64,000 nt of DNA from Ardenticatenales bacterium (lineage in GTDB: Bacteria > Chloroflexota > Anaerolineae > Epilineales > Epilineaceae): positions 76,587-140,586 of the forward strand of contig JADYYS010000039.1 of NCBI GenBank assembly GCA_020853525.1, in the 5' to 3' direction. The position numbers were made by a program, and so were the translations under genes. Positions within the stretch are counted from its first letter, which is position 1. The number at the start of each line of letters is the position of its first letter. The notes below the pieces were generated by a model. It had not been told where the DNA came from and did no database searches. It was given only the letters and a program-made list of their open reading frames with translations. Positions 257 to 58,500 of this stretch are shown here, in pieces.

Positions 257-1516
257 GTGACCGACCCCTCCGAGGCCGCCCGCCGCCTGATGCGCACCCG
301 CGCCGACATCGACCACGAGGAAGCGACGGTCCTCGCGCCGTACGCCGAGCGGTCGGCGACAAGCCGGGGGCGGCTGCATCCGAGCGAGCCGCATGCGTAC
401 CGGTCCGAGTACCAGAAGGACCGCGACCGGATCGTCCACACGACGGCCTACCGGCGGCTGCAGTACAAGACGCAGGTCTTCGTGAACTATGAGGGCGACT
501 ACTACCGCACGCGGCTCACGCACACCGGCGAGGCGGCGCAGATCGCGCGGACGATCGCGCGGGCGCTGCGGGCGAACGAGGAGCTGGCGGAGGCGGTGAC
601 GCTGGCGCACGACCTCGGGCACAGCCCGTTCGGGCACTCCGGGGAGGTGACGCTCGACCGGCTGATGCTCGAACGGATCGGGCTCGACCCGGCGGACGAG
701 GCGAACAGGGGCAAGGGCTTCAACCACACGCTCCAGAGCCTGCGGGTCGTCGAGAAGCTCGAGAAGCGCTGGCCGGGGTTCGACGGACTGAACCTGACGT
801 GGGAGGCGCGCGAGGGGATCGTCAAGCACGCCACGGAGTACGATGCCGTCGGCCTCGAGTGGATGCAGCCGTACGAGCCTGCTTGGCGATCGTCGCTGGA
901 GGGCCAGATCGTGAACTTCGCCGACGAGCTGACGTACAGCGCGCACGACCTGGACGACGGGCTGCGGAGCGGCATGATCGACATGAACATGCCCGAGCTG
1001 AAGCGCCTGGCGTTCTGGCAGCACGTATCGCACGGCATCGACGATGACGACCCGGAGCTGCGGCGGCACCGGATCATCCGCCGCGTCGTCGACGCGCTGA
1101 TCACGGACGTCGTGACGGCCAGTGCGGAGCGGATCGCGCGCCACGCACCGCAGAGTGCGGACGACGTGCGGCGGGCGGGCGAACCGCTGATGACGCTTTC
1201 GACCGAGATGCAGGCGATGCAGCGCGAGCTGAAGGACTTCCTGTACGCCAACCTCTACCGCCACTGGCGGGTCATCCGGATGTTCCACAAGGCCGTGCAC
1301 GTGCTGGAGACGATGTTCGAGACCTTCGAGCACGACTACCGCCAGCTGCCGGCCTCGACCGCGGCGCGCATCGTGCGCGCCCAACCGGACGTCCGGGCGA
1401 GCCGGCCGCTGGCGCCGGAGAGCTACCGCGTGATCTGCGATTATCTGGCGGGGATGACGGACCGGTACGCCCTGCAGGAGTACCGTCGGCTGGTCGATCC
1501 GTTCGAGCGGGCATAG
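257..1516 (+). CDS. dgt: dGTP triphosphohydrolase-like HD-domain phosphohydrolase
   Basis: Frame of ORF 119..1516. HD-domain signature (...HTTAYRRLQYKTQVF...LAHDLGHSPFGH...). GTG at 257 is preceded by AAGGAG at 244-249 with a 7-nt spacer. The upstream Pro/Arg-rich part of the ORF is judged non-coding. Confidence 0.8.
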   Translation: MTDPSEAARRLMRTRADIDHEEATVLAPYAERSATSRGRLHPSEPHAYRSEYQKDRDRIVHTTAYRRLQYKTQVFVNYEGDYYRTRLTHTGEAAQIARTIARALRANEELAEAVTLAHDLGHSPFGHSGEVTLDRLMLERIGLDPADEANRGKGFNHTLQSLRVVEKLEKRWPGFDGLNLTWEAREGIVKHATEYDAVGLEWMQPYEPAWRSSLEGQIVNFADELTYSAHDLDDGLRSGMIDMNMPELKRLAFWQHVSHGIDDDDPELRRHRIIRRVVDALITDVVTASAERIARHAPQSADDVRRAGEPLMTLSTEMQAMQRELKDFLYANLYRHWRVIRMFHKAVHVLETMFETFEHDYRQLPASTAARIVRAQPDVRASRPLAPESYRVICDYLAGMTDRYALQEYRRLVDPFERA

Positions 1517-1576
1517 GCCGATGAACCGCAGTGAGGGGCGTCGTGCGTTCGGCGCGGTGCGCGCGGTGTCGCGCGC

Positions 1577-2434
1577 ATGACGATCGACATCTGGCAGTCG
1601 ATGTTCATCGGCGCCCTCCAAGGTGCCACCGAGTTCCTCCCGGTTTCGTCCGACGGCCACCTCGTCGTCATCCCGGCGCTCCTCGGCTGGCCGCACCCGA
1701 GCCTGACGTACGACGTCGCCGTCCACATGGGCACGACGCTGGCGGTGCTGCTGTACTTTCGGCGCGACTGGGTCCGGCTCATCGCCGGCGGTTGGCGGGG
1801 CCTGCGCCTCGGGGCGCCGTGGCGGGACGTGGACGGGCGGTTGCTGTGCGTCATCGTCGCCGCGAACGTCCCGGCGGGGCTGGCGGGGATCACGTTCAAG
1901 GACTGGTTCGAGGCGCAGTTCAGCGTGCCGCGGTTGGCGGCGGGGCTGCTCATCGTGAATGCGGTGATTCTGGTGGCGGCCGAATGGATCGCACGGTCGA
2001 GGGCGGGTGCGCAAACGGGCGCCGAAGCCGGTGCGCCGGCGGACGCCGTGCATCGCGTCGGGTTGGCGAGGGGGCTGGCGATGGGCGTCGCGCAGATCGC
2101 GGCGATCCTCCCGGGCATCTCACGATCCGGCACGACGATCGCGACGGGGTTGGCGTTGGGGGTGACGCGGGAGGCGGCGGCGCGGTTCAGCTTTCTGATG
2201 GCGGCGCCGATCATCGTGGCGGCGGGGCTGTTGCAGGCGGTTGAGGTGCTGGGGGACCCGGTGGCGCGGGGGGCGATGGAGCCGGGCGGCATCGTCGCGG
2301 CCGGCTGCGTGGCCGCGTTTCTGGTCGGGATCGCGGCCATCGCGGGGTTGCTGCGGTTCGTGCGGCGGTCGCCGCTCTACGTGTTCGCGGCGTGGTGCGT
2401 GGGGGTCGGGGTGATCGGGTTGTGGCGCCTTTGA
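1577..2434 (+). CDS. uppP: undecaprenyl-diphosphate phosphatase
   Basis: ORF 1577..2434. The EFLPVSSDGH motif and multiple TM segments are typical of the BacA/UppP family. Confidence 0.9.
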   Translation: MTIDIWQSMFIGALQGATEFLPVSSDGHLVVIPALLGWPHPSLTYDVAVHMGTTLAVLLYFRRDWVRLIAGGWRGLRLGAPWRDVDGRLLCVIVAANVPAGLAGITFKDWFEAQFSVPRLAAGLLIVNAVILVAAEWIARSRAGAQTGAEAGAPADAVHRVGLARGLAMGVAQIAAILPGISRSGTTIATGLALGVTREAAARFSFLMAAPIIVAAGLLQAVEVLGDPVARGAMEPGGIVAAGCVAAFLVGIAAIAGLLRFVRRSPLYVFAAWCVGVGVIGLWRL

Positions 2435-3408
2435 TGACCGACGAAGATGCACCCGTGCCGCTGACGTTCGGCGCGCTCGCCCTGTCGTCCATGTGGGCCC
2501 AGCGCTTCCCCAACCCCGACGACCTCCGCCCGTTCTTCGACGCCGGCCGCGCGATGGGCTTCGAGCGCTTCGAGCTCAGCCACACCCACGCGCCCGCGGC
2601 GCTTGCATCGATCCCGCCGGACGTCGTCATCGCCTCCGTCCACCACCCGTGCCCTGCCGGCCCTCCGTTGCGCCCCGGCGACGACGCGACATCGCCCGAC
2701 CCGGCGGCGCGCGCGCGCTGGGCGGACGCGCTGCTGCGGACGATCGACACGGCGCAGCGCTTGTGCGCGACGGCGATCTGCGCCCACCTCGGAAGCGCAC
2801 ACGACGAGCGGGTGCGCAAGCTCTGGTTCGAGCTCCACAGCCGCTATCAGGCCGGGCAGAAAGGTTCGCCGCGCTATGTCGAGGCGCTGGGTGAGCTGCG
2901 CGACCGTCTGGCGGTGGTGGAGCCGGCGGCAGTCGAGCGGGCGGTGGACGTGCTCGCGAGCGTCGTCGGCGATCTGCGGGGAGCGGGAGTGGCGTTGGGG
3001 ATCGAAACCGGGTATCACGCGTGGGAGCTGCCGACGGCGGGGGGGATGCGGCTTCTGCTCGAAGGACTTGAGGCGGCGGAGACGGGGGCGGTCGTGGGGG
3101 AGGCGGCGGTTGTCGGGGCGTGGCTGGATACGGGGCACGTGGGGGTGCAGGTGCACGTGGGGACGGCGATGTTCGACGAATGGTTCGAGGCGGTGGCGCG
3201 CGTCGGCGGTCGGTGGGTGGGGGGGCACCGGCATGACGTCGTCGGCGTACGCGACCACCTGCCGCCGGGCGGTGGGCAATTGGACCTCACATCGATCGCG
3301 CGACGGCTAACGGCCGGTAGAAGCCTTGCGATGGTGTCGACACTTGAGGTCGACTGGTACCTGTCAGCCGACGAGATCGTGCGCGGCGCGCGGATCGTGA
3401 CGGGGTGA
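2434..3408 (+). CDS. sugar phosphate isomerase/epimerase family protein (xylose isomerase-like TIM barrel)
   Basis: ORF 2392..3408. The ATG at 2434 overlaps the uppP stop as ATGA. Composition and motifs (GFERFELSHTHAP...) resemble the TIM-barrel AP-endonuclease/xylose-isomerase-like fold. The family assignment is tentative. Confidence 0.5.
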   Translation: MTDEDAPVPLTFGALALSSMWAQRFPNPDDLRPFFDAGRAMGFERFELSHTHAPAALASIPPDVVIASVHHPCPAGPPLRPGDDATSPDPAARARWADALLRTIDTAQRLCATAICAHLGSAHDERVRKLWFELHSRYQAGQKGSPRYVEALGELRDRLAVVEPAAVERAVDVLASVVGDLRGAGVALGIETGYHAWELPTAGGMRLLLEGLEAAETGAVVGEAAVVGAWLDTGHVGVQVHVGTAMFDEWFEAVARVGGRWVGGHRHDVVGVRDHLPPGGGQLDLTSIARRLTAGRSLAMVSTLEVDWYLSADEIVRGARIVTG

Positions 3409-13322: not shown

Positions 13323-13446
13323 ACGCGGTCCGCCTGCGGGCGCACCATTACGGAGTTGGACGCGGCGACGTGCGGACGGCACCTTCGGCACGGGTACGGC
13401 TCGCCCGGCGGTGCGACACGCGGCGAAGAGCGAACGGGAGGCCTTG

Positions 13447-14268
13447 GTGAACCCGAGATACGCCGGCTCATGTGCGACGCTCGCGATCGTGATCCTGACG
13501 GTCAGCAGGGTCAACGTTTGGGCCGCTCAAGGGTCATCGAGCGTCAGGCTGGCGGTTACGGCGGTGGACGGCTGGCAGGACACGGCGATCGACCTGGTCG
13601 ACGGCGAGGCGCTGGAGGTCCGCTACATCACGGGCACCTGGACGATCAACACCGCCGGCAACTGGTTCGATGCGGACGGCTATCCGGGCTACTACCCGCG
13701 CGACGTGCAAGGGGCCTGCGCCGAGGCAGCCCTGCCGGACGAGCAGAACGGTGCCCTGATCGGGCGCATCGGCGGCGGTCCGCCGTTCCTGATCGGGAAC
13801 CACAAGTCGACGGTGGCCGACCGTGCCGGTGCGCTCCTGATGCGGATGAACGACGCCGACGCCTGCCGCAGCGACAACGGCGGCAGGGTCGAGGTGCTCG
13901 TCGCCCACGGCGCGACAACCGCCGTGCCGCCGACGGCCTCGTCCGTCGAGACGGCGATGCCTGGGACCGCTGCCCCACGAACGGCCGTGCCCGCGCCGCC
14001 GACGCCGAGCGCCATGGTGCCCGCCCCGCCGCCCGGTGACGCCGTGTCCACCGACCTGCCGGCTCCCCCTGCGGTCGCGGGCACCTCCTCAGCGACGAGG
14101 ACGGCCGAGCAATCGGGCTTGCCGTCGCCCCCGCCCCCCGCGCGACTGCCAAGCACGGGCGGCTCGGACCGGACGCCGCAACAACTGGCACTCGTCGGGC
14201 TGCTGATCATGGTCGGCCTCGGGGCGCGCCGGTGGGAGCGACGACGACCTGCTCAACGCGGCAGTTGA
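13447..14268 (+). CDS. cell-wall-anchored (LPSTG) secreted protein with PA-IL/LecA-like lectin domain
   Basis: Frame of ORF 13411..14268. GTG at 13447 follows GGGAGG. There is a signal peptide (…ATLAIVILTVSRVNVWA|AQG). The domain GTWTINTAGNW…GALIGRIGGGPPFLIGN…GALLMRMNDADACRSDNGGRVEVLV matches the LecA pattern (GALVMKIGNSG…IYNDVPGTYGNNSG). After a Pro-rich stalk comes LPSTG + TM (LALVGLLIMVGLGA) + RRWERRR, a classic sortase sorting signal. Confidence 0.6.
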   Translation: MNPRYAGSCATLAIVILTVSRVNVWAAQGSSSVRLAVTAVDGWQDTAIDLVDGEALEVRYITGTWTINTAGNWFDADGYPGYYPRDVQGACAEAALPDEQNGALIGRIGGGPPFLIGNHKSTVADRAGALLMRMNDADACRSDNGGRVEVLVAHGATTAVPPTASSVETAMPGTAAPRTAVPAPPTPSAMVPAPPPGDAVSTDLPAPPAVAGTSSATRTAEQSGLPSPPPPARLPSTGGSDRTPQQLALVGLLIMVGLGARRWERRRPAQRGS

Positions 14269-15385: not shown

Positions 15386-15520
15386 GGCGCTGGCCTCGGT
15401 GCTCGTCGGCGGGACGAGAAAGCATAACGGCGGCGAGGGGGGAGACGTTGGAAGTATCCGGTGCGGCGAGAGGGCGGTCAACTGTGGTCGTGCCGCGGAG
15501 GCCGTCGGAGCCCCTCACCC

Positions 15521-15553
15521 CTCGACCTCCTCTCGACCTCCTCTCGACCTCCT
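15521..15553. repeat. perfect 11-nt tandem repeat x3 (CTCGACCTCCT; reverse complement AGGAGGTCGAG) in the era / 15566-gene divergent region
   Basis: Read directly from the sequence. It lies 13 nt upstream of the GGAG RBS of the gene starting at 15566. Confidence 0.8.
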
Positions 15554-15565
15554 GCGGAGCGACAG

Positions 15566-16819
15566 ATGTCCCGACAACCACGCAACGCGCTTGTCGCCAT
15601 GACCGCCGTGGTCCTCGCGACGACGCAGATCGTCACTTCCGCCGGCACCGCCGCCTCCCCCGGCCCGATCGACTACATCCCCGCCGATCTCACGGACTAC
15701 GCTCCCGTCGGCGTGCCGGACTTCTCGGCCTGTCGACCGGAGTGGAGCCGCCCCGCCGCCGAGGCGAACGGGCCCGGACAGTGGACGTTCAGCGCGCCCG
15801 TCGCCCTGGCCGACGCCCTGTGGTGGCTGGACTCGCGCGCCGAGCCGCAGCCCGCCGCGCCTCCCTTCGTACGGGACGGCCACGGCCTCGTCACGGCCTA
15901 CCCCGCCTTCGGGCCGCCCCGCGACGACCACGACACGGCGAACCTCGGGCCGCTCATCGACGACCTCGCCGGCCGGGTCAACACCGACAACCGCGGCGCG
16001 CCCGGCAACGTGCGCGGGACGCGATGGGAGGACTTCGTCGACGGTGTGGAGTCGTACGTGGCGACGCGGCGGCTCAAGCCCGGTTACGCCGTCGCCACGA
16101 CGCTGCGACCGACCGGGCTGTGGCTGCGCGCGCAGGCCGACCGGTCCGCCGGCGTCGTCGTGCTGATCGGCGTCTGGGAGCAGGCGGGCGAGGGGTGGCG
16201 CCGGATCGGCGGGCACTACGCCGCGCTGGCCGGGACGGACGCCGCCGGCGAGGTCGTCGCGCTCGCCGACCCGGTGTACGATCAGGCGGTCCGGCCCGAC
16301 AACGGCGGTCGGTTCGTCCCGACCGACGGTGCCGCGCACTCCTGCCGCAACGCGCCGCGCGCCCACGACGACGCCGGCGCCGTCAGCCACGACCGCTACG
16401 ACCTCTTCCCTCCTTCCGGCATGCCGGACGCCGCGTGGGCGCTGGCCGGCTATTTCCGCCCGGAGACGTTCGGCGAGGGCGCCGCGTTCGCCGGCCAGAA
16501 CCCGGCCGACCACCTGGCCGACGCCAGCGGCACGTGGCAGCGCGGCACCCTCATCGCCGTGCTGGACGCCGCCCTCGCGCTCCAGCCCCGCGGCGGCGGA
16601 TCGTCCGTCCCGACGGCGACGCCACCCGCCGCGACGGCCCCACCGACGCCGACGACGGCGCAGAGCGCCGAGCCGACGGATGCGCCGACCGCCCCACCGA
16701 CGCCGACGACCGGCGCGAGCCCGACCCGCGCGCGCCCGACGCCGGCGCCGATCGGGGGCCGGATCCAATTCGATCGCCTCTGGCTGCCGGCGCTGCGCAA
16801 CCAGAGTCGCAGGCGATAG
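15566..16819 (+). CDS. secreted hypothetical protein, possible papain-fold/C39-like peptidase domain, Pro/Thr-rich linker and C-terminal RLWLPALRN tag
   Basis: Frame of ORF 15461..16819. The ATG at 15566 follows GGAG and starts the signal peptide MSRQPRNALVAMTAVVLATTQIVTSAGTAAS. A candidate Cys (DFSACRPEW) and a GGHYAALAG motif suggest a C39-like fold, but this is a weak guess. The C-terminus reads PTPTTAQSAEPTDAPTAPPTPTT...GGRIQFDRLWLPALRNQSRRR. Confidence 0.55.
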   Translation: MSRQPRNALVAMTAVVLATTQIVTSAGTAASPGPIDYIPADLTDYAPVGVPDFSACRPEWSRPAAEANGPGQWTFSAPVALADALWWLDSRAEPQPAAPPFVRDGHGLVTAYPAFGPPRDDHDTANLGPLIDDLAGRVNTDNRGAPGNVRGTRWEDFVDGVESYVATRRLKPGYAVATTLRPTGLWLRAQADRSAGVVVLIGVWEQAGEGWRRIGGHYAALAGTDAAGEVVALADPVYDQAVRPDNGGRFVPTDGAAHSCRNAPRAHDDAGAVSHDRYDLFPPSGMPDAAWALAGYFRPETFGEGAAFAGQNPADHLADASGTWQRGTLIAVLDAALALQPRGGGSSVPTATPPAATAPPTPTTAQSAEPTDAPTAPPTPTTGASPTRARPTPAPIGGRIQFDRLWLPALRNQSRRR

Positions 16820-27488: not shown

Positions 27489-28604
27489 TTATAGCATCCG
27501 GGTCCGACCGCTCTCTCTGCCGCGGTCGTGTCGATCGCCGATGCGCGCGCCGCGCTTCGTGCCGATGGACACCGCGAACCGTGCCGGCGCCCGTCGGCCG
27601 CGCAGCCGCGCCGTGAGCGGCCGCAGCGCCCACCGGACGTCGACGTACGGCCGCGCGTGCCGAAAGTCCAGCCCGATGGTCGCGCCGATCCGCTCGAGCT
27701 CGCCGGCGACGAGGAACTCGCGGCTGCCCTGCGCGGTGGATGGATAGCCGTAGCGCGCCGCGAACGCCGCGGCGCGCTCGGCCACCATCTGCACCCCGCT
27801 CGCGTGCCGCGCGTAGATCGGGCTGTCGACGACGACGACCCGGCCACCGGGCCGCACGGCACGGGCCGCCTCGGCCAGCGTCGCCGCCGGATCGACGGCG
27901 TAGTGCAGGCTGGCGCTGAAGACGACGAGATCCGCGGCGCCGTCCGCGACGGGCAGGCGGTCGGCATGGGCGACGGCGCGGACGAATCGTCGACCCAGGC
28001 CGCGCGCGACGAGATCGGCCGCGTACGGTTCGCCCGCCCCCAGCCCGTCGCCCGCATCATCGCTCACGTCGACGGCCAGCACGGCAGCGCCGCCAACCGC
28101 AAGCCGCCACGCCAGCCAGCCCGTGCCGGCACCGACGTCGATGACCCGCCCGGGCATGCCGCCGGCCAGCACCGCGCGGCAGAACGTGCGGTAGCTTGCG
28201 GCGCGGATCCGCCACTGCCAGGCCAGCGGCGTCGTCGACAGCGCGTCGGGCAGCGCGAACCGCTCCGCGGCCGTCATCGCTGCACGGCCCTCGGCGCGCC
28301 GCACGCCGGTGTACTCGGCCAGGAAGTCCGCGAGCAGGGCCGCATCCGTGTCGCAGAGGAAGCGCCAGATGCCGTCCCGACACGGCCACCGCGCGCCGCA
28401 TGCGGCGCAGCGGACCGCGGCGACGGCACCGGAGGCGGAATGGGCGTCGGCAAGGGCATCGGCATCCGCGTCATCCGGGTCCGATTCCACGGAGGCCGTG
28501 GACTCCGGCAATTTGCCGAGCGGGTGCCCGCAGGCCGGACAGCGCATCGCCCAGCCGACCGCATCCATGCCGGCCGCCGGTCCGTGCGCGTCCGCCGACG
28601 TCAT
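27489..28604 (-). CDS. class I SAM-dependent methyltransferase with N-terminal zinc-ribbon (CPACG...CAACG)
   Basis: C-terminal 371 aa of ORF 27489..29702. The ATG at 28604 overlaps the upstream gene stop as ATGA. SAM motif I is VIDVGAGTGWLA. Confidence 0.75.
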   Translation of the reverse strand: MTSADAHGPAAGMDAVGWAMRCPACGHPLGKLPESTASVESDPDDADADALADAHSASGAVAAVRCAACGARWPCRDGIWRFLCDTDAALLADFLAEYTGVRRAEGRAAMTAAERFALPDALSTTPLAWQWRIRAASYRTFCRAVLAGGMPGRVIDVGAGTGWLAWRLAVGGAAVLAVDVSDDAGDGLGAGEPYAADLVARGLGRRFVRAVAHADRLPVADGAADLVVFSASLHYAVDPAATLAEAARAVRPGGRVVVVDSPIYARHASGVQMVAERAAAFAARYGYPSTAQGSREFLVAGELERIGATIGLDFRHARPYVDVRWALRPLTARLRGRRAPARFAVSIGTKRGARIGDRHDRGRESGRTRML

Positions 28605-29584
28605 CGCGCGCGCCGCAGCACGACGGCGACGTGGTCGGCCCACAGCGCCGCCGTCGGCAGCCGGCTGGCTGCGGCTTCGGCGGTCGCCCAGGCGCGCCAG
28701 AGCCACGGTCGATCGAATGTCCCGCCCCGCGGCACGGCCCAGCTGGGCGGGACGACCACGCCGATCGGCACGACGCGGACGAGCTTCCACGCCGGGCCGA
28801 GACCGCCGGCCACGGCGCGTGGCGAGCGATACCAGACCGGCCAGCGCCCGGTGCCGAGATCGGCCGAAGCAAGGCCGCGCCAGCGCCGCGTCGCCCGCCG
28901 GACGTCCCCGCGCGCCAGGCCGAGGATGGTCTCCCAGGCGCAGCCGGGGGGCATCACGACGGCGACGAAGCACCCGCCCGGTCGTACGAGGGCCGCCAGC
29001 GCCGCTCCGAGCGGGGCGAGGTCGCCGATACAGTTCAGCACGCCGAAGTCGGCCAGGGCGCCGGCGTAGGGCGAACGATCGGCCGGGCGACGGTTCGCCG
29101 GCGGATCGGGCCGCGAGACGCCCACCGGCCACGTCGACGGATCTCCGACGTCGGCGACGTGGACGGCGACGCTGCCGACGCCGTTGTCGGTCATGGCCGC
29201 TGCGACGGCAGCGGCGTCGCGCGCCACGGCCACCATCTGCGGCGCAACGTCGAGCGCCACGACGTCGATTCCGCGGGCGGCCAGGTGGAGGGCGTCGACG
29301 CCGGTGCCGCAGCCGAGGTCGAGGACGCGGTCGGCGCCGGCGAAGACCTCGTCGGCGACGCGCCATACGGCTTGCCGGACGATCCGGCCGGACGGGTGGT
29401 CCGAGAACACCTCGTCGTAGCGGGACGCGAGAACGTCGAAGGCGGCCGCCAAGGGCGATCCCGACGGCAATGGGGCCGTCGGCCGCTCGTCCGTCACCAC
29501 CGCCGCGCTCACGGCCGGCGCGCCCCGTCGACCGGCCGGTCGTTCCAGCGCATACCCCAGCGGCTCCACTCGGCCCTGAGCCAT
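28601..29584 (-). CDS. class I SAM-dependent methyltransferase (paralog of preceding gene)
   Basis: ORF 28601..29584. Motif I is VLDLGCGTGVDALHLA. The more probable start is GTG at 29512, forming a GTGA overlap with the stop of the upstream radical SAM gene. Confidence 0.75.
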   Translation of the reverse strand: MAQGRVEPLGYALERPAGRRGAPAVSAAVVTDERPTAPLPSGSPLAAAFDVLASRYDEVFSDHPSGRIVRQAVWRVADEVFAGADRVLDLGCGTGVDALHLAARGIDVVALDVAPQMVAVARDAAAVAAAMTDNGVGSVAVHVADVGDPSTWPVGVSRPDPPANRRPADRSPYAGALADFGVLNCIGDLAPLGAALAALVRPGGCFVAVVMPPGCAWETILGLARGDVRRATRRWRGLASADLGTGRWPVWYRSPRAVAGGLGPAWKLVRVVPIGVVVPPSWAVPRGGTFDRPWLWRAWATAEAAASRLPTAALWADHVAVVLRRAR

Positions 29585-31089
29585 GCGCGGGCGATCGGGA
29601 GGAGGGCGTGCGGGCGGTCGCGGCGCAGACGCGCGAGCGCGACGGCATGGCGCAGGCGGCGGGTGGCGTGGCGGTAGTAGCGCGGGCCGGGGCGGCCGGC
29701 AACGTGGTGGTCGCGGTCCGTGGCGGCCGCCCAGTCGGCGGGCGGCGTCACGCGGTCGGCGACGGCGTCGAAGTACGGCGTGCCCTTGATCGGGTAGGCG
29801 ACGGTCGTGAGGAAGATGTCGGGGTCCGTCCGGCGCACGAAGTCGACGGTGGCCTCGATGTCGGCCGTCGTCTCGCCGTCATAGCCCCACATCAGGAACA
29901 TCCCGACCGCGATGCCTGCCGCCTTGAGCCAGGCGGTGGCCTGCGCCACCTCGGCCACGGAAACGCCGCGCTCCATCGCGTCCAGCACGCGCTGTGAGCC
30001 GCTCTCGCTGCCGATCCAGATTCGAAAGGCGCCCATCTCCCGCAGGACCTCGACGGCGGCGGGCGACAGTCGGTCGGCGCGGGTGATGCACTCGAACGGG
30101 CGCTTCAAGCCGCGCCGGCCGAGCTCGGCGCCGTACTCGGACAGCCAGCGCGGGTGGATCGTGAAGACGTCGTCGGCATACCAGAGCATGTCCGGGTTCC
30201 AGCGCTCGATCAGGTGGGCCACCTCGTCGGCCACATCCGCGGGCGAGCGGCGGGCGTGGTGGTGGCCGAAGACGCTGTGGCTGCACCAGCGGCACTTGTA
30301 CGGGCACCCGCGGGCGCAGATCAGGTTCAGCGAGCCGGCACCGTGGTGCGTCCGCCAGCACGTGAGGTAGGCATCGATGTCGATCGCCTCGCGGTCCGGC
30401 CACGGCACGCCGTCGAGGGCGGTGAGCAATGGGCGCGGCGGAGTGCGCACGACCGCGCCGGCCTCGTCGCGGAAGGCGATGCCGGCGATGTCGTGCAGGC
30501 GGTGCGGACCGTGGCGGGCGAGTGCGGGCAGCAGCTCGGCCATCGTCACCTCGCCCTCGCCGATGACGATCACGTCGGCGCCGTTGGCCAGGTAGGCCTC
30601 CGGCCAGTTCGCGCTCTCCGGCCCGCCCAGCACGACGGTGAAGCCATGCGCCTTGGCATGGCGCGTCAGGTCGAGCACGCTCGCACGGGTCGTAAGGTTG
30701 GTGTACAGCCCGAGCACGGGCGCTTCGCGGGCCGCCAGACGGGCATGGGCCGTCGCGCGCGTGGCGAACGTCGTGTCCTGCACGCCGACGGTGAATCCGG
30801 CGCGCTTGAGGTACGCGCTGACATAGAGCAGGCCGAGCGGCGCGTACGGCTTCATCACGTGCTGCTCGTGCGCGTCCTCGCCCAGGAAGTAGCTGTGCGA
30901 CAGGAGGACGTCCAACCGGCGGGCCTCCGGAATTGCGGCGGCCGGCCATGGCACGAGCGATGTTCGGAGCGTGTCGGCCGGGGCGAGTGTGGGAATGGTA
31001 GCGCAACGCGGGGTCCGGGTCCGCTCGGTCGCGGACGGATCGGACCACGGGTTCAGCCGTCGTGCGATCGACTGACCACGGGGCGGCAC
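29509..31089 (-). CDS. B12-binding domain-containing radical SAM protein (class B rSAM)
   Basis: ORF 29509..31089 with a GTG start. An N-terminal cobalamin-binding Rossmann-like region precedes CPYKCRWC (CxxxCxxC) and IWIGSESGSQRVLDAM. Confidence 0.8.
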   Translation of the reverse strand: MPPRGQSIARRLNPWSDPSATERTRTPRCATIPTLAPADTLRTSLVPWPAAAIPEARRLDVLLSHSYFLGEDAHEQHVMKPYAPLGLLYVSAYLKRAGFTVGVQDTTFATRATAHARLAAREAPVLGLYTNLTTRASVLDLTRHAKAHGFTVVLGGPESANWPEAYLANGADVIVIGEGEVTMAELLPALARHGPHRLHDIAGIAFRDEAGAVVRTPPRPLLTALDGVPWPDREAIDIDAYLTCWRTHHGAGSLNLICARGCPYKCRWCSHSVFGHHHARRSPADVADEVAHLIERWNPDMLWYADDVFTIHPRWLSEYGAELGRRGLKRPFECITRADRLSPAAVEVLREMGAFRIWIGSESGSQRVLDAMERGVSVAEVAQATAWLKAAGIAVGMFLMWGYDGETTADIEATVDFVRRTDPDIFLTTVAYPIKGTPYFDAVADRVTPPADWAAATDRDHHVAGRPGPRYYRHATRRLRHAVALARLRRDRPHALLPIARAWLRAEWSRWGMRWNDRPVDGARRP

Positions 31090-31105
31090 GACGTCTCGGC
31101 CTCCG

Positions 31106-32692
31106 TCACCCCGCCGACGCCGTCAGATCCGGCGGCGCGGAGGGCGGCCGCACCGTCGGCCGTGTCGGCGCCGCGTTGCGGGCGACCGCGGCCTCGGCGG
31201 CGAGAACGTCCCACGCGGCCATCGCCGCGTCCAGCTCGGCGTGCGCGACGGCACGGGCGGACGGCGCGGCCGCATCGCCGGCCGCGTCGGCGCGGGCGAC
31301 GGAGTGGCGCGCGTCGAGTTCGCGGTGCAGCTGGGCGTGCAGTGTGCGATAGAACCGGGTCGTGAACGTGCCTTGGAAGAGCATCGCCAGGTCCATGCTG
31401 TCCTGCCAGTGGCCATCGCCGGCCAGCTCGTCCGCCACGCGGTGGTGGAAGGGCGTGCCGGGCAGCGGGTAGCTGACCGAGACGCCGATCGCGTCGGGCA
31501 CGACGGCGCGCACGAGGGCGGCGGTGGCCTCGACGTCGGCCCACTCCTCGCCGGGATAGCCGAGCTGAAGGAAGAAGGCGACGCGGATGCCGCGGGCGCG
31601 CAGGCGCGCGGCGGCGGCCGGAACGTCGGCGGCGCGGATGCCCTTGTCCATCGCGTCCAGCACGGGCTGGGAGCCGCTTTCGACGCCGAGCCAGACCTCG
31701 ACGCAGCCGGCGCGCGCCAGGCCGTCGGCGGCGGCATCGCTGATCAGGTCGACGCGGCTTTGGATCGTGAACGGCAGGTCGGCGCCGCGCGCGGCGACGG
31801 CCTCGCCGAAGGCCGCCGTCCATTCGGGGCGCAGGCCGAAGATGTCGTCGGCGAACCAGACGTGGTCCGGCGCGTGCTCGCGCTTGAGCGCCGCCAGCTC
31901 GTCGGCGACGGCGTCCGGCGTGCGCATCGCGTAGCGCTGGCCCCAGATCGGTTTGGCGCACCAGTTGCAGTGGAACGGGCAGCCGCGCGTGCTGGCGGCG
32001 TTGAGAGACCAGTGGCCGTGCGCCGCTCGCCAGACGGCGCGGTAGGCGTCGAGGTCGACGAGATCGCGGGCCGGCGGCGGAAAGCGGTCGGGGATGCGTT
32101 CCGTCGGGCGGGGCGGGGTGCGGGCGATGCCGCCGCCGACGCCGGCGAGCACGAGGCCGGGCACGGCGGACAGGTCCGGGCGAACGGCGTCGTGCCGCGT
32201 GGACCGGCGATCGACTTCGGGCGCCGTCGGATCGGTGTGGCCGAGGAGCACGCGCACCGCTTCGACGATCGTCCAGTCGGCCTCACCGTAGGCCACCGCC
32301 GCCGCGCCGGCGTCGAGAAAGCGCTGCGGTGCGTCGCTGGCGTCGGAGCCGGCGACGAGCGTCGGCAGGCCGCGGTCCGCCGCCAGGGCGACCATCCGGA
32401 GCGCGGCATCGCGCATGACGGCCAGGCACATCTTGGAATAGAAGTTGAAGCTGTCCTCGAACAGGACGACGAGCCGCGGGCGATGGGCGTCCAGCGCGTC
32501 CTCGAACACTTCCGGGCCCGGGGCGATCATCGCATCGAACAGCGCGACGCTCCACCCCGCGTCCCGGACGGCTGCCGCGGCGTACAGCGTGCCGAGGGGC
32601 GGGTACGGACGCCGGAGCGCGGCCTGCTTGGGGTCGAGCGCCATGAACAGCGCGTGCCCGAACAGGACATCGACGCCGCCGGCGGTGTTCAT
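31106..32692 (-). CDS. B12-binding domain-containing radical SAM protein (paralog)
   Basis: ORF 31106..32692. Contains CPFHCNWC and VWLGVESGSQPVLDAM. It is the same architecture as the adjacent gene, with a 16-nt gap between them. Confidence 0.8.
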   Translation of the reverse strand: MNTAGGVDVLFGHALFMALDPKQAALRRPYPPLGTLYAAAAVRDAGWSVALFDAMIAPGPEVFEDALDAHRPRLVVLFEDSFNFYSKMCLAVMRDAALRMVALAADRGLPTLVAGSDASDAPQRFLDAGAAAVAYGEADWTIVEAVRVLLGHTDPTAPEVDRRSTRHDAVRPDLSAVPGLVLAGVGGGIARTPPRPTERIPDRFPPPARDLVDLDAYRAVWRAAHGHWSLNAASTRGCPFHCNWCAKPIWGQRYAMRTPDAVADELAALKREHAPDHVWFADDIFGLRPEWTAAFGEAVAARGADLPFTIQSRVDLISDAAADGLARAGCVEVWLGVESGSQPVLDAMDKGIRAADVPAAAARLRARGIRVAFFLQLGYPGEEWADVEATAALVRAVVPDAIGVSVSYPLPGTPFHHRVADELAGDGHWQDSMDLAMLFQGTFTTRFYRTLHAQLHRELDARHSVARADAAGDAAAPSARAVAHAELDAAMAAWDVLAAEAAVARNAAPTRPTVRPPSAPPDLTASAG

Positions 32693-38979: not shown

Positions 38980-40002
38980 ATGAATCCGACGCCGCCGCTC
39001 CCGCTCCGCGGCGTCCTCGCCGCACTCCCGACGCCGTTCGACGCCGCCGGATCCCTCGCCCACGCCGCCGTCACCCCGCTCCTGGACCTGGTCGCCGGTA
39101 GCGGCTGCCACGGGGCGCTCCTCGCCGGCTCGACCGGCGAAGGCCCGTCGCTGACGCTCGACGAGCGGACCGCGCTCGTGGCCGCCGCCGGCGCCTGGCG
39201 CGCCGCCCGTCCGATCGACGCGCCGCCGTTCCTGATCCTTTGCGGCACCGGCCACCCTGCCTGGCCCGACGCCGCACACGCGACGGCCGCCGCCGTCGCG
39301 GCCGGGGCCGACGCGGCCGTCGTCGTCCCGCCCTACTACTTCAAGGGCGTGAGCGATGGCGGGCTGATCGACTGGTATCGGCGGGTGATCGACGGTGCGG
39401 GCGATCGGCTCGCGCACGGCCCCGCATCCCCGCGGTCCGGCGGCAACGGGGCCGAAGCGCCGCGCGCACCGACGCTGCGCATCCTCCTGTACGACATCCC
39501 CCGCCATACCGGTGTCCCGATCCCGAACGCCGTCCTGGCCGCCCTTGTCGACGACTACGGCCCGCACGGACCGATCGTCGGCCTCAAGGACTCGACCGCC
39601 GACCGGACCGCGACGGTGGATCGGATCCGCGCGCTGCCGGAGCTGGCGATCTTCTCCGGCACGGACACCGACCTGTCCGCAGTGCTGGCGGCCGGCGGGG
39701 CCGGAGCGATCACGGCCCTGGCGTCCGTTCGAGGCGACCTCCTGCGCCACGTCTGGGACCGCGCTGCGACAACGGCCGACGATGCGCGGACGGCGCAAGC
39801 GGCGCTCGACACGGCGCGCGCCGTCCTCGACGCACGGCCGGCCGTCGCCGCCCTGAAGGCCGACATCGCCCAGCGGCTCGGCGGCGACACGTGGCATGTC
39901 CGTCCGCCGCTCGTGGATCTACCTGCGGCCGACGGACGGGCGTTCAGCCAGGCACTGGCGCGGATCGGCGCCGCGGCGGGCAGGAACGCGAGGCGGGGGT
40001 AG
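38980..40002 (+). CDS. dihydrodipicolinate synthase / N-acetylneuraminate lyase family (DapA-like) aldolase
   Basis: Frame of ORF 38707..40002, with ATG 4 nt after the cytochrome stop. The family Schiff-base Lys context is IVGLKDSTAD, in the (beta/alpha)8 class I aldolase pattern. An unusual Gly/Pro-rich insertion is present. Confidence 0.6.
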   Translation: MNPTPPLPLRGVLAALPTPFDAAGSLAHAAVTPLLDLVAGSGCHGALLAGSTGEGPSLTLDERTALVAAAGAWRAARPIDAPPFLILCGTGHPAWPDAAHATAAAVAAGADAAVVVPPYYFKGVSDGGLIDWYRRVIDGAGDRLAHGPASPRSGGNGAEAPRAPTLRILLYDIPRHTGVPIPNAVLAALVDDYGPHGPIVGLKDSTADRTATVDRIRALPELAIFSGTDTDLSAVLAAGGAGAITALASVRGDLLRHVWDRAATTADDARTAQAALDTARAVLDARPAVAALKADIAQRLGGDTWHVRPPLVDLPAADGRAFSQALARIGAAAGRNARRG

Positions 40003-40006
40003 GGCG

Positions 40007-41995
40007 ATGGCAGAGCGGCGAAACGGGACGATCGGACGATGGTCCGCGCAGCGGTCCGCGCGGGTGGCGACCGTCGCGTTGGCGATCGGGCTCGTCGGCC
40101 TCGGCGCCGCGCGTGCTGCCGCCGAGGCCGGTACGGGTGCCGATGCCGATGCCGTCGGTGTTGCCCATGCCGAACCGATTGCCGATTCGGCCGCCGATTC
40201 CGACGCGGCGGCGGTGTGGGCCGTCGTGGACACCGTTCGCCCGGGCTTCCTGCCGCCGCCCGGCGGTGTCGTTCGTCCGGTCGATTTGGCGGTGCTGCCC
40301 GACGGCGGCTTCCTGGTCGTGGACGATACGCTACAGCGTGCCGAACGGTTCGACGCTGCCGGCGGCGTGGTGGTCGGCTACGGCGGCGTGCCGGGCGACG
40401 GGGCGTTCATCGAGGCGCCGATCGGGGTGGCGGTGGATCCGGCGCGGTCGCGGGCGTACATCTCGGACGCCGTCGGGCGCAAGGTACTGGCGTTCGATCT
40501 CGGCGGTGGGCTGCAGGCCGCGTGGGCCGGGTTCGCCCAGCCCGAGGCGGCGACGGTCGGGCAGGACGGGCGGTTGTATGTCTACGATCGGCCGAAGGCG
40601 GCGCTGGCCGTCCGTCGCCCGGACGGGACGGCCGAAGCGGAGATCACGGTCCAGCGGGCGCTCTCGTTCTCCTCCGAGCTGCCGAGCGGCCTGGCGACGA
40701 GCGGGCGCGGGACGCTGTTCTTCGCGGCCGAGAACCCGGTGGCGAATGCCGCCAACGTGCTCTACGAGTTCTCTGCCGACGGCGCGGTCATCCCGCCGCG
40801 AACGCAGCTCCGGTGGCGGATGCGGGACATCAGCTTCGACGCGGCCGGCGAGATGTTCGTCCTGGACTGGACGAACCGCCGGATCGTCAGCCGCCTCGAT
40901 CGGCAGCGAGGCGAGATCGGCCGCGCCTGGCCCGTGGCCGGCTTCCCGGTGGCGATGGCCGCTCGCGCCGCCGACGAGGTCTTCCTCCTGTACGGCGCCT
41001 CGCCTGCCGCTCCGGCGGCCGTGGCCGTCGTCGAGGGCGGGCGTGAGGTGCGCCGGCTGCCGCTGCCCCGCCCGGCCGGCCGCTGGTTCGGCCCGCCGCT
41101 GCGCCTGCAGGTCGATGCGACCGGCCGCCTGTGGGTCGTCGACGAGCTCGAGCGCGCCGTGCGGCTGACGCCCGATGGCCGGGAGGGCGACACCCAGTTC
41201 ACGCTCCACGGCCTGCAGGAGATCGTGCCCCTCGGCGACGGATCGACGGCCGTCGTCATCCGCACGCGCAGCTCGTCGTCCAACGACGCCCCCGACGACC
41301 GCGACGCACCGCCGCCGGGCATCCGCCGGGTGAGCTTCGAGCGCTACAGCGTGCGACCGGGCGCCGACCCGGGCATCGACCTGACCACTGTCGTCACCCG
41401 CACGTTCGTCACGGACGTCACCGCGTCGGACACGATCGTCGCCGCCGCCAGCGCCCCCGACGCCGACGGCCGCGGTGCCTGGGTGCTCGACCGCGGCTCA
41501 TCCCGGCTGCACCACATCGTTCAAGGCATCTCGAACACGATCGACGTGGCGACGACGCCGTTGCCCGAGGCGAGCAGCGCACTGGAGTACCGCGACGTCG
41601 TGGCGCTCCAGGGCGGCCGGATCGGCGTGCTCCACGGCCCGACGAGACGATTGCTGGTCGTCCGTCCGGACGGGGGCGCGCCGGACGCCGTGGCGCTGGA
41701 CGTGGAGAGCGCCCTGCGCATCGCGGCGCTGCCGGACGGTCGGTTGGCCGTGCTCACGAGCGGCGACGACGTCGCGATCCTGGCCGCCGACGGCCGCCGC
41801 CAGGCCGTCGTGCCGCTGCCCCGCCCCGCGGGAGCGGGCAACGAGCCGGCCAGCGACATCGCCGCCGGGCCGGACGGGACGGTGTACGTGGCGGACCGGC
41901 TGGACCGGGCGGTGTACCTGTTGCGGGCGGGGACAGGGCAGCCGAGCCGGACGGGGGTGTACTTGCCGTGGGTGGGGAATGAGGCGGCGCGGTAG
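40007..41995 (+). CDS. secreted NHL-repeat-like beta-propeller protein with C-terminal GVYLPWVGN tag
   Basis: Frame of ORF 39896..41995. The ATG at 40007 starts the signal peptide MAERRNGTIGRWSAQRSARVATVALAIGLVGLGAARAAAEA. Repeated FxLDxxxRL / VYVADRLDRAV blades resemble NHL repeats. Confidence 0.5.
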   Translation: MAERRNGTIGRWSAQRSARVATVALAIGLVGLGAARAAAEAGTGADADAVGVAHAEPIADSAADSDAAAVWAVVDTVRPGFLPPPGGVVRPVDLAVLPDGGFLVVDDTLQRAERFDAAGGVVVGYGGVPGDGAFIEAPIGVAVDPARSRAYISDAVGRKVLAFDLGGGLQAAWAGFAQPEAATVGQDGRLYVYDRPKAALAVRRPDGTAEAEITVQRALSFSSELPSGLATSGRGTLFFAAENPVANAANVLYEFSADGAVIPPRTQLRWRMRDISFDAAGEMFVLDWTNRRIVSRLDRQRGEIGRAWPVAGFPVAMAARAADEVFLLYGASPAAPAAVAVVEGGREVRRLPLPRPAGRWFGPPLRLQVDATGRLWVVDELERAVRLTPDGREGDTQFTLHGLQEIVPLGDGSTAVVIRTRSSSSNDAPDDRDAPPPGIRRVSFERYSVRPGADPGIDLTTVVTRTFVTDVTASDTIVAAASAPDADGRGAWVLDRGSSRLHHIVQGISNTIDVATTPLPEASSALEYRDVVALQGGRIGVLHGPTRRLLVVRPDGGAPDAVALDVESALRIAALPDGRLAVLTSGDDVAILAADGRRQAVVPLPRPAGAGNEPASDIAAGPDGTVYVADRLDRAVYLLRAGTGQPSRTGVYLPWVGNEAAR

Positions 41996-42117
41996 GGGTG
42001 AGGGATCGGGCGCCGAGTCGTTGGACGATCGGGGAGAGAGGCTTGCGTGAGCGCGTCTATAATCGTCCCGAGAACGCCCCGCCGTTCCGAACGATTCCCC
42101 TCCCAGGAGCCCTCGCC

Positions 42118-42708
42118 ATGACGGACAGCGCCACGGCAACGCACGATGCGGTCGCCACGCCGGGCATCGCCGATCAGCTCGACAGCGCGATTCGGCGCTA
42201 CGGACTGCACGCCGCGCTCGTCGTCGCGCTCACTGCGCTTATCGGCAGCCTCTACTTCAGCAACATCCGAGGCTACACGCCGTGCGTGCTGTGCTGGTAC
42301 CAGCGCATCTTCATGTACCCGCTGGCCTTCATCCTGGCGATCGGGATCGGCGTCCGCGACCGGTCCGTCGCGCGTTATGTCATCCCGTCGGCCCTCGTCG
42401 GGACGGCCGTCGCCGTGTACCACGTGCTGCTCCAGAAGACGAACTGGCTGCCCGAGACGCCGGCCTGCAAGGTATCGGTCCCGTGCAGTTCGGACTACAT
42501 CTACTGGCTCGGCTTCATCACGATCCCGGTCCTGTCCCTGACCGCGTTCGTGCTGATCCTGATCTTCGTCTCGTCCACGCTCACGCAGGCGGCGGAGTTC
42601 GAGCCGGCGTGGGGAGCGCGGCCGTGGCGGCGGGTGGCGTTGATCGTCATCGGGACGGTGATCGTGTTCGGTGTGCTCTGGGCGGTGGACGGCAAGGCGG
42701 TGGTGTAA
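42118..42708 (+). CDS. dsbB: disulfide bond formation protein B (BdbC/DsbB family)
   Basis: Frame of ORF 41998..42708. The ATG at 42118 follows AGGAG. There are four TM segments, a first Cys pair (CVLCWYQR) and a second pair (PACKVSVPC). Confidence 0.75.
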   Translation: MTDSATATHDAVATPGIADQLDSAIRRYGLHAALVVALTALIGSLYFSNIRGYTPCVLCWYQRIFMYPLAFILAIGIGVRDRSVARYVIPSALVGTAVAVYHVLLQKTNWLPETPACKVSVPCSSDYIYWLGFITIPVLSLTAFVLILIFVSSTLTQAAEFEPAWGARPWRRVALIVIGTVIVFGVLWAVDGKAVV

Positions 42709-55575: not shown

Positions 55576-58500
55576 TCAGCGGTCGATCACACCGCTTGCC
55601 CGCGCCGCCGAGGTCCGACAGACGTACGGGAAGTCCATCCCGCAGCGCGTCGACCGGCTGGCCGCCGCACGCGGGTCGCTGCCCGCGCGCGCCTCGCAGC
55701 CGTCGCCCGCCCCGTCGCCGTCCGTGTCGGGCGCCAGGGCGAACGTCCCGGCGCGCCACTCGGCCGCGTCGTCGAGGCCGTCGTCGTCCGAGTCGGCATC
55801 GTCGGGCCACGAGAGCGTGCGCAGGACCTCTTCGCCGTTCGGCAGGCCGTCGCCGTCGTCGTCCGCCTTCGGTGCGACGAGCACATACGTCCACGTCTGC
55901 GGCGGGCTGAGGGGAGTTGCGGGGGCGGATGCTGTCGCGTCGGCACGGGCGATCGCGTTGCGGTCGAGGGCCACTTCGAGGGGGCCGAGGGCGGGTGGGG
56001 CGAAGCCGGTGAAGACGTATGGGCCGGCGCCGGCGCCGGAGAGCGACGTCGCCGGAGAGCCGTTCACCGTCAGCATGGCCGGCCGGACGCCGACGACCTC
56101 GGCGTCGAACGTTACGGCGTACGAAGGGAGCGACACGACGTACGGATGGAGGTGGAACGGCGTCTGGTAGACGACGTGCGGGGGTTCGAGACCGGGTCGG
56201 TCGCCCGACGCCGCGGCGTCGCCCGTCCGTCCTCCCGACTGCAGGATCTGTCGGTCGCGGTTCACGGTGTCCACCCAGCGGTGCCAACGCCAGAAGATGG
56301 GATCCCGCGGCGCGCTCGGCGGGTTCAACATGTCGCCGCCGATGAGGAGGTGAATCGTGTTGTGCCATGGTTCGGTGACGGCGCAGCCGAGCAGTCGCCG
56401 GTCGGCCGGGTAGTCCGACAGGCGGGACTGGCCGCCGCCGGTGACGTCGCACGGCATCCCGTTCCAGCCGCGGACGCCGCCGCCGTTGGCCGTGAACGAT
56501 GCCGGCTTGGCGAACGGTCGATAGAACGCGTTGCGCGATGCGTGGTCGATGTCCGGCCCCCGCGGGATCGGCTGGGCGGAGTCCCATGTCCCGATCTCGG
56601 GATAGCCGAACTCGTGCCGCCAGCGGTTGAAGCGGTCCATGAACTGGACGTGGAAGTCGAAGAACAACGCCCCGTCGTAGAAGGGCTGCTCGAACGCGTA
56701 CCGCTGGTGCCACAGCGCGTGCTCGCGCTGGACGAACTGGGTGTGGTTCGTCGTATAGAAGTCCTCCGCCTGCCGGGTGCTGTTGGCCGCATTGCGCTCG
56801 ACGCTGAGCGTGACGACGTCCGTGCACTGGCCGACGCCGTCGCGCACCGTCACCCAGACGCGTCGGGCCACCGGGCCGGCGTTGTTCGGGTGGCGCTGGC
56901 TCAGCGCCGGCTTCCAATAGAGGGCGAACGTCGAAGCGCGCATGTCGGTCGCGCGGAGCGGTGTCGTCCGCCACACGCCGGCCGTGCTTTCGCTGTAATC
57001 GGCGATCGCGTCGCCGTCGTAGCCCCAGCTGTACGTGAAGTTGCCGCGCGTCGGGGTCATCGCCGCCCGGAACGCGACGCGCTGGCCGACGTTGGCGGTG
57101 CCGGTGCGGGGCGTGATCGACACGCGGCACGTCGTCGGGATCGTCGCCGTCGGGATGGGCGTCGGCGGGGCCGGGGTGGCGGTCGGGCCGACGAGCGTCG
57201 GGAGCGCGGCCGCCGGGGTCGGGACGGCCGTCGGGGCACCGTCGGCGCGCGCGGCGCTGAAACGCAGCCCGGCGATTTCCTCGCCCGCGAAGCCGCGCAC
57301 CCACACGGCCTGCGCCGGTGCGCCGGACGGCGCATACGCTTCCGGCGGCTCCACCGTCACGCCGTACCGGCCCGGCTGGGCGACGGCGACGCGGAATGTT
57401 CCGTCCGCGCCGGTGAGCACGGTCTGCGCCTCCGGGCCGGCCACGGTCACGCGCGCGCCGGCGAGCGGCACCGGCGCCGGCCCGCCGACGTCGTCGACGG
57501 TACCGGCGATGTCCGTCAGGCCGGCGGCGACGAGCCAGTCGCACTGGCCGTAGGCGTAGCGCGCCCCGCCGCCCGTGCTGGCCGACAGCCGCGCGCCCCC
57601 GCCCGTCGGCGAACGGCGCGCCCGCACCGTCCGCCGCCACGGGACGGCGGGTGCCGCGCCGCTGAAGATCACGGCGGTCTCGCCGCTGGGGCCGATGTCC
57701 TCGAGCACCGCCTGCACCGCCTCGCCGCCGCCCGAGACGACGTTGAGCGTCAAGTCCACCGCCTCGCCGGCGACGAAGAGCGGCCCGCTGTCGCCCATCA
57801 CGCAGCCGCGGTCGGTGGCCACGGCCGCAGCCAGGCGCGGCACGCCGCTCGTCTCGCCGCTCAGGCCGATCGTCACGAGGGGTGCGTGGTCGTCGTCCGT
57901 GCGGACGAGGAGAAAGTCCTGCCAGGCGCCCTCCGCTTTCGGGGTGAAGCGGACGGTCACGCCGCGCTCCTCACCCGGCATGAGGAGCGTATTGGCGCTC
58001 CACGGTGCCGGCAGGGCGAACGGCGACGTGCCGGCTTCGCTCTGCAGCGCCAGGCCGAACACCGTGAGCGGCGCGCCCCCCACGTTGCGAACGGTCAGGA
58101 TGCGATCGGACGTGCCGCCGGCGGCGATGCGGTCGAACGCGAGGCGATCGGGCCGCACCGTGACCGCGGGTCCAACCGGTGCGACGACCTCGAACGCACA
58201 GGCGCCCTCGGCTGTCGGCTGGGCATCGCCCGCGGCACGGAAGGCGCGCCACAGGACGCGGCGCGTGCCGAGCGCGGCGCCGATCGGCACCGCAACGCCA
58301 TATGCCTGCCCGCCGTCGACGGCCCGCCTGTCGGCCAGGCTGCGGACGGCGCCGTCCGGCGCGATGTCCTGGACGGAGAGCCAGGCACTTGCGGCGCCGC
58401 GCACCCGGAAGCGCAGCACGGCGTGGTCGCCGACGACGGCGGAAGCCGCCGGCTGGGCAACCGAAACGCCCGGGCCGGCCCGGCAGCCCGTCGAGGCGTC

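Follow-up and report, generated by a model that had tools for sequence, protein, structure and literature searches.

LecA-type lectins have been studied mainly as soluble virulence or biofilm factors of Pseudomonas and of a few enterobacteria. LecA (PA-IL) of Pseudomonas aeruginosa (PDB 1OKO, 1L7L, and 3ZYB), a diderm bacterium, forms soluble tetramers; its single-domain chain has about 121 residues and is made without a signal peptide. Lectin-type adhesins with an LPXTG sorting signal include the Siglec-like serine-rich repeat adhesins of streptococci and the mannose-specific adhesin of lactobacilli; these Gram-positive proteins are composed of a signal peptide, a glycan-binding head, a low-complexity stalk that spans the wall, and an LPXTG motif followed by a hydrophobic segment and a basic tail. 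Here, we describe a gene at positions 13447 to 14268 (forward strand) of a 64-kb stretch of DNA from an Ardenticatenales bacterium of the phylum Chloroflexota (hereafter the window), whose product shares the design of the LPXTG adhesins and carries a LecA-like head. It is probably an exported, surface-displayed, Ca2+-dependent carbohydrate-binding protein, that is, a lectin-type adhesin of this organism.

Compared with LecA, the head has the same fold and the same Ca2+ site at an identity of 17% to 20%, while the signal peptide, the stalk, and the LPXTG tail are features of the protein described here. PllA of Photorhabdus luminescens (5ODU) and EclA-N of Enterobacter cloacae (6YGQ), both gammaproteobacterial, are approximately 21% to 23% identical. 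In EclA, which is regarded as the first fused LecA domain, the domain is joined to a second lectin domain and the product is made cytosolically as a soluble protein (PMC11875179); it has neither a stalk nor a sorting signal, unlike the protein here. The Gram-positive LPXTG adhesins, in turn, differ from it in their head, which is not of the PA-IL fold, and in their hosts, which belong to Bacillota or Actinomycetota rather than Chloroflexota; the present protein is also very small, with a single domain. In the literature that we searched, no paper joined PA-IL and LPXTG in one protein. The features of the gene and its product are as follows (aa, amino acid positions in the product):

13436..13441, forward strand: Shine-Dalgarno-like GGGAGG, 5 nucleotides (nt) before the GTG start, read from the sequence
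13447..14268, forward strand: complete coding sequence (CDS) from the listing of open reading frames (ORFs), GTG start, 822 nt, 273 aa plus stop
13447..13524, forward strand: predicted Sec signal peptide, aa 1-26, with n-region MNPRYA, h-region GSCATLAIVILTVS, and c-region RVNVWA
13540..13911, forward strand: PA-IL/LecA-like β-sandwich domain, aa 32-155 (~124 aa)
13717..13719, forward strand: codon of Cys91, predicted disulfide partner of Cys140
13849..13884, forward strand: predicted Ca2+/sugar-binding loop N135-D136-A-D-A-C140-R-S-D143-N144-G-G146, from the profile alignment
13864-13866, forward strand: codon of Cys140, predicted disulfide partner of Cys91
13912..14142, forward strand: Pro/Ala/Thr/Ser-rich stalk, aa 156-232 (77 aa), defined by composition
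14146..14160, forward strand: LPSTG sortase-type motif, aa 234-238, inside R-L-P-x-T-G-G
14185..14226, forward strand: C-terminal hydrophobic segment LALVGLLIMVGLGA, aa 247-260, Kyte-Doolittle mean 2.59
14227..14265, forward strand: positively charged, Arg-rich tail RRWERRRPAQRGS, aa 261-273
14266-14268, forward strand: stop codon

A first-pass annotation of this DNA had placed a LecA-like domain of about 110 residues after the signal peptide, on the basis of a GALxxxIGxxG-type pattern. The domain is found at this place, with a length closer to 124 residues, and the pattern is present from G102 to G146, where it reads G102-A-L-I-G-R-I-G-G-G ... G128-A-L-L-M-R-M-N135-D136-A-D-A-C-R-S-D143-N144-G-G146. 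Direct searches for the family speak against this assignment: the HMMER comparison with the Pfam PA-IL model (PF07828, gathering score 22.5 bits) gave no match even at E ≤ 10 for the whole protein and E ≤ 1 for the isolated domain, and no NCBIfam model matched the protein at E ≤ 10. A single-sequence phmmer search of the PDB sequences likewise returned nothing. A search of 5.8 billion proteins yielded only nine close homologues, and the profile of this nine-sequence clade had PilQ, a low-complexity match, as its sole hit in the PDB; aligned to LecA by hhalign, it gave a weak match (E = 0.053) in the expected register.

As neither the direct searches nor the nine-sequence profile are sufficient, the link to PA-IL is drawn from a deep family profile, built from an alignment of 66 diverse domains of the family that is headed by the window sequence. 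Against the whole PDB, this profile matched PA-IL lectins only, and over their full length: PllA (5odu, E = 7.2e-12), the further PA-IL lectin 30ew (9.5e-11), EclA-N (6ygq, 6.3e-9), and LecA (1l7l/1oko, 3e-7). A local hidden Markov model (HMM) check against LecA gave 36 bits. The Pfam PA-IL model itself was touched at E ≤ 1 by 26 of the 66 domains (best 5.9e-8), and one family member (P0021) exceeded its cut-off with 52 bits. Structure prediction pointed in the same direction. With the deep alignment and without templates, AlphaFold2 modeled the domain with a predicted local distance difference test score (pLDDT) of 98.1 and a predicted template modeling score (pTM) of 0.91; a first run with 8 close sequences had been poor (pLDDT 66.5) and was not used in the fold search. 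Foldseek with the predicted domain placed LecA, PllA, or EclA in all of the top 11 matches, with template modeling (TM) scores of up to 0.83. Identity to the characterized PA-IL lectins is 17% to 23%. The first-pass annotation had thus recognized the pattern correctly: the domain belongs to the PA-IL superfamily, as a divergent member that the current Pfam model does not reach.

The predicted binding loop aligns with N99-D100...T104...N107-N108-S-G110 of LecA. In this profile alignment, Asp100, Asn107, and Asn108 of LecA correspond to Asp136, Asp143, and Asn144, and Thr104, which is a main-chain ligand in LecA, falls on Cys140. The ligand columns are among the most conserved of the family, with D136 kept in 198, D143 in 202, and N144 in 206 of 226 domains (~88% to 91%). 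In the crystal structure of EclA-N, Ca2+ is held by Asp114, Asp121, and Asn122 together with two carbonyls; the spacing of D136/C140/D143/N144 is identical to that of D114/Q118/D121/N122, and Asp in place of Asn107 is the state that binds Ca2+ in EclA-N (PMC11875179). We consider a Ca2+ site in the domain very likely and carbohydrate binding likely.

The sugar-contacting residues gave a different picture from the Ca2+ ligands. LecA contacts galactose O6 through His50 and Gln53, neither of which has a counterpart here (the aligned residues are Gly89 and Ala92). Reminiscent of EclA-N, in which an extended loop opens the site (PMC11875179), the loop in this region is 7 residues longer than that of LecA; the alignment of this loop is uncertain, and no His/Gln pair is present. 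The term galactophilic, used in the first-pass annotation, can therefore not be transferred from LecA, and galactose specificity is unsupported by the sequence. That the protein would be a functional LecA orthologue, a galactose-specific, tetrameric, virulence-type lectin, is very improbable: it has the fold and Ca2+ site of LecA, but lacks these two residues, carries the longer specificity loop, is only 17% to 20% identical to it, gives no Pfam PA-IL match, and adds a signal peptide, stalk, and anchor that the solved single-domain chains of LecA and PllA do not have. In addition, its host is recorded from environmental metagenome-assembled genomes (MAGs) and metagenome assemblies only.

The missing specificity residues and the low identity to characterized lectins would also fit a domain that is not a lectin at all, namely a Ca2+-stabilized β-sandwich with a noncarbohydrate ligand or a purely structural head. 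EclA-N, whose site is structurally the most similar, adds to this doubt, as its ligand is still unclear (PMC11875179); because EclA-N has the same Ca2+ site, that site does not guarantee lectin activity. We nevertheless regard this explanation as rather unlikely. Within a family of thousands, conservation is highest at the Ca2+ triad and its adjoining loops, which speaks for a binding site and against a scaffold. Each of the three relatives with a solved structure has been described as a lectin or a lectin domain, and galactoside binding is documented for LecA and PllA. Moreover, family domains share polypeptides with BACON, PKD, Laminin_G_3, and CARDB modules, all of them typical of proteins that are secreted or exposed on the surface.

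Export of the protein is suggested by its N-terminus, assessed by inspection of the n-, h-, and c-regions. The n-region is basic, the h-region GSCATLAIVILTVS comprises 14 residues with a hydropathy of 1.98, and cleavage is predicted at V-W-A / A, after A26. Equivalent, signal-peptide-like N-termini are found in the homologues. Two of these (P0005 and P0008) have annotated starts that are too short, and in-frame upstream ATGs restore signal-peptide-like N-termini; in a second Ardenticatenales MAG (L001), the extensions lie at 955-1101 and upstream of 2613. A lipoprotein was ruled out, as Cys9 is not preceded by a hydrophobic region and is not conserved.

A second indication of export is the pair Cys91 and Cys140, which is absent from LecA and invariant in the close clade. 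Across the family, 49 of the 50 domains with a Cys in the column of residue 140 also have one in the column of residue 91. A predicted disulfide between them, bracing the Ca2+ loop, fits a location outside the cytoplasm. The window also holds a gene for a DsbB-family disulfide oxidoreductase (41998-42708, forward strand), which fits oxidative folding outside the cytoplasm. An extracytoplasmic location is indicated by these signal peptides across the homologues, the co-occurrence of the Cys pair, and the DsbB gene.

The remainder of the protein consists of the Pro-rich stalk and the LPSTG-hydrophobic-basic sorting signal that the first-pass annotation had recognized. The stalk (P 26%, A 22%, T 14%, and S 10%) shows little conservation and differs in length from one homologue to the next, and no tandem repeats were found in its DNA. 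From the start of the motif to the C-terminus there are 40 residues, and a spacer of 8 residues separates the motif from the hydrophobic segment. Six of the nine homologues carry R-L-P-x-T-G-G with a hydrophobic segment and a basic tail, in which only x varies (S, G, G, R, N, and A). An LPxTG at 30 to 45 aa from the C-terminus arose in 0.1% of 200,000 composition-preserving shuffles (~0.001). When the six tails alone were compared with NCBIfam, the sole responders were sortase-signal models, all under their cut-offs: NF041528 (LAETG; 15.3 bits, cut-off 30), LPXTG_double, and TIGR01167 (10.7 to 11.4 bits). GlyGly-CTERM, PEP-CTERM, and other exosortase-type tags were ruled out, as no such NCBIfam model responded to the tail; a GlyGly-CTERM-type tag is further disfavored by the position of the GG, 8 residues before the hydrophobic segment. 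Among the 157 family proteins examined, the sorting-type tail is confined to the Ardenticatenales clade.

Several results weigh against attachment by a sortase. The LPXTG anchor model TIGR01167 scores 10.8 bits on the protein, against a cut-off of 15.9, PF00746 does not match it, and the hydrophobic segment is short (14 to 16 residues). No sortase was found in the 64-kb window: no credible ORF contains a TLxTC signature, and PF04203 matched none of the ~29 window genes scanned. A class-E sortase consensus, checked against PDB sortases, gave named matches that were all from Actinomycetota among its best 120. Searching the 5.8 billion proteins with a profile of the six tails returned nothing, the query being too short for significance, and the window contains no second LPXTG-type tail. 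More generally, the functional steps proposed here are all based on prediction.

Of the anchoring claimed at first, the anatomy of the signal thus stands, while the enzyme is missing from the window; sortase anchoring is what we infer from the sorting signal alone. The same gaps, together with the searches that tied no sortase to this genome or its order, would be expected if the protein were a membrane-anchored surface protein without sortase processing, its tail serving as a stop-transfer anchor and its LPxTG being kept for some other reason. We consider this unlikely, since the strict invariance of L, P, T, G, and G around a free x, within a fast-evolving stalk, is the signature of a recognized motif, and since the geometry of motif, spacer, short hydrophobic stretch, and basic tail is typical of sortase substrates. 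Sortases have, furthermore, been reported in Chloroflexi (PMC6744442). As the tail would anchor the protein in the membrane even without a sortase, surface display is more secure than covalent attachment to the wall. A gene for undecaprenyl-diphosphatase (BacA/UppP) is located at 1577-2434 (forward strand), which indicates an undecaprenyl-phosphate cycle, the carrier for wall precursors.

Taken as a sortase-type surface lectin, the protein could work in the following way. The precursor would be exported by the Sec route through its N-terminal signal peptide and cut after V-W-A26. Residues 32 to 155 would then fold oxidatively into the PA-IL/LecA-type β-sandwich that profile homology and the predicted structure show, with the probable Cys91-Cys140 disulfide beside the binding loop. 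One Ca2+ would be held by Asp136, Asp143, Asn144, and main-chain carbonyls and, like the ion in LecA and PllA, would coordinate two hydroxyls of the sugar. The glycan may be contacted by the ion and by a long Tyr/Pro-rich loop (aa 78-101). The 77-residue Pro/Ala/Thr-rich stalk would project the domain outward from the cell, while the LPSTG motif, hydrophobic segment, and Arg-rich tail would keep the precursor in the membrane until a sortase cuts between Thr237 and Gly238 and joins the protein to peptidoglycan. Without a sortase, the same tail would still yield a membrane-anchored lectin facing outward. Its role is probably adhesion to glycans of neighboring cells, to exopolymers, or to the organism's own wall polymers, as in filaments, flocs, or biofilms.

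The family to which the domain belongs proved to be large. In the profile search, 2,455 representative clusters (50% identity) were retrieved at E ≤ 1e-3, and 465 at E ≤ 1e-10. Family domains are often repeated in tandem in long proteins, with up to 5 full-length copies detected locally, and are fused to BACON, PKD, Laminin_G_3, fn3, CARDB, or TPR modules (P0010-P0157). Most members have no Pfam or NCBIfam annotation, and the records that could be named read "hypothetical protein." Both modules of the protein described here are known and the mechanism is not new; its novelty is the combination and the host. We tentatively propose, as a possibility that falls somewhat short of an even chance, that it is the first wall-displayed PA-IL-fold lectin with a sortase signal, on a large, almost wholly unannotated PA-IL branch of at least 2,455 clusters.

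If this is true, LecA-type lectins would no longer be seen as a few soluble virulence factors of proteobacteria, but as a modular domain, widespread in environmental bacteria, that binds glycans in a Ca2+-dependent manner; in Ardenticatenales, they would serve in cell-cell or cell-matrix adhesion. Confirmed binding would make the family a new source of Ca2+-dependent lectins and the protein a candidate adhesion factor of filamentous Chloroflexota, and it would be a case for broadening the Pfam PA-IL model.

The lectin ORF is a real gene. The 273-aa product matches the GenBank protein MCC7019771.1 (P0001; IT332_08455) from end to end at 100% identity; this record is labeled "hypothetical protein" and derives from an Ardenticatenales (Chloroflexota) MAG. 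The start at 13447 is favored because GGGAGG lies 5 nt upstream, and it is also the start of the 273-aa protein recorded at NCBI; an alternative JGI gene call gives 285 aa from an upstream GTG at 13411. The high-GC (guanine plus cytosine) host supposed in the first-pass annotation is confirmed, as the window has 72% GC and NCBI assigns Chloroflexota to the kingdom Bacillati. In such DNA, many long spurious ORFs occur on both strands, and the ORF listing is rich in long overlapping reverse-strand frames, so that a chance reading frame had to be considered. This explanation is already refuted, and we give it practically no weight. The codon-position GC of the domain-coding part (0.69/0.50/0.93) resembles that of neighboring housekeeping genes and is not seen in the other two frames of the same strand; GC at third codon positions (GC3) is 0.86 for the whole CDS and 0.93 for the domain part. 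The Shine-Dalgarno sequence, the nine homologues with their strongly conserved domain, the confident structure prediction, and conserved synteny equally contradict a chance ORF.

The gene ends a string of nusA, infB, DHH, truB, and ribF, and is convergent with era. The order ribF, lectin gene, and convergent era is also found in L001, and the lectin gene is therefore native rather than a recent insertion. No sigma-70 promoter, intrinsic terminator, or DNA tandem repeat was found around it.

The clade of LPXTG-bearing lectins is very rare. A scan of 185,579 species genomes for the close clade found a single locus (JBDTSC010000264.1), and a metagenome scan found a single contig, 99% identical and apparently from the same organism. 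The homologous domains are 63% to 88% identical to that of the window, with 57 invariant columns (seven aligned, A2). L001 has two copies of the lectin gene between ribF and era (1909-2613, reverse strand, and 1102-1815, forward strand), the result of a duplication. One of the two copies (P0005) has an LPNTG tail. In the other copy (P0008), and in P0009 from a separate contig, a C-terminal module of approximately 75 aa replaces the LPXTG tail; it contains four Cys (CVCR...GWRYLLDPNKPEGPTNPRRECL...VGCH), has no Pfam match, and would be an alternative attachment or function module. In P0006 (258 aa), an Arg-rich run (RRRRRR...) makes up the C-terminal half and replaces the Pro/Ala-rich stalk as well as the LPXTG tail, most likely due to a frameshift or assembly error in its MAG.

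Other genes in the window encode further proteins with features of export. A 452-aa ORF at 15461-16819 (forward strand) has a signal-peptide-like N-terminus, a Pro/Thr-rich linker, and no Pfam match, and ends (16778-16819) in ...FDRLWLPALRNQSRRR. An NHL-repeat ORF at 39896-41995 (forward strand) ends (41957-41995) in ...TGVYLPWVGNEAAR. The end motif shared by these two ORFs, [VL][WY]LP[AW][LV], may be a lineage-specific C-terminal tag. A further large protein, probably also extracellular, is encoded on the reverse strand at 55576-59175; its 1,199 aa combine SdrD_B-like, CarboxypepD_reg, and HYDIN-type Ig domains with a short stretch resembling tyrosinase, and it lacks an LPXTG-type tail. Finally, two neighboring B12-binding radical SAM genes (29509-32692, reverse strand) adjoin a methyltransferase gene (28601-29584), and together these may form a small modification or biosynthetic cluster.

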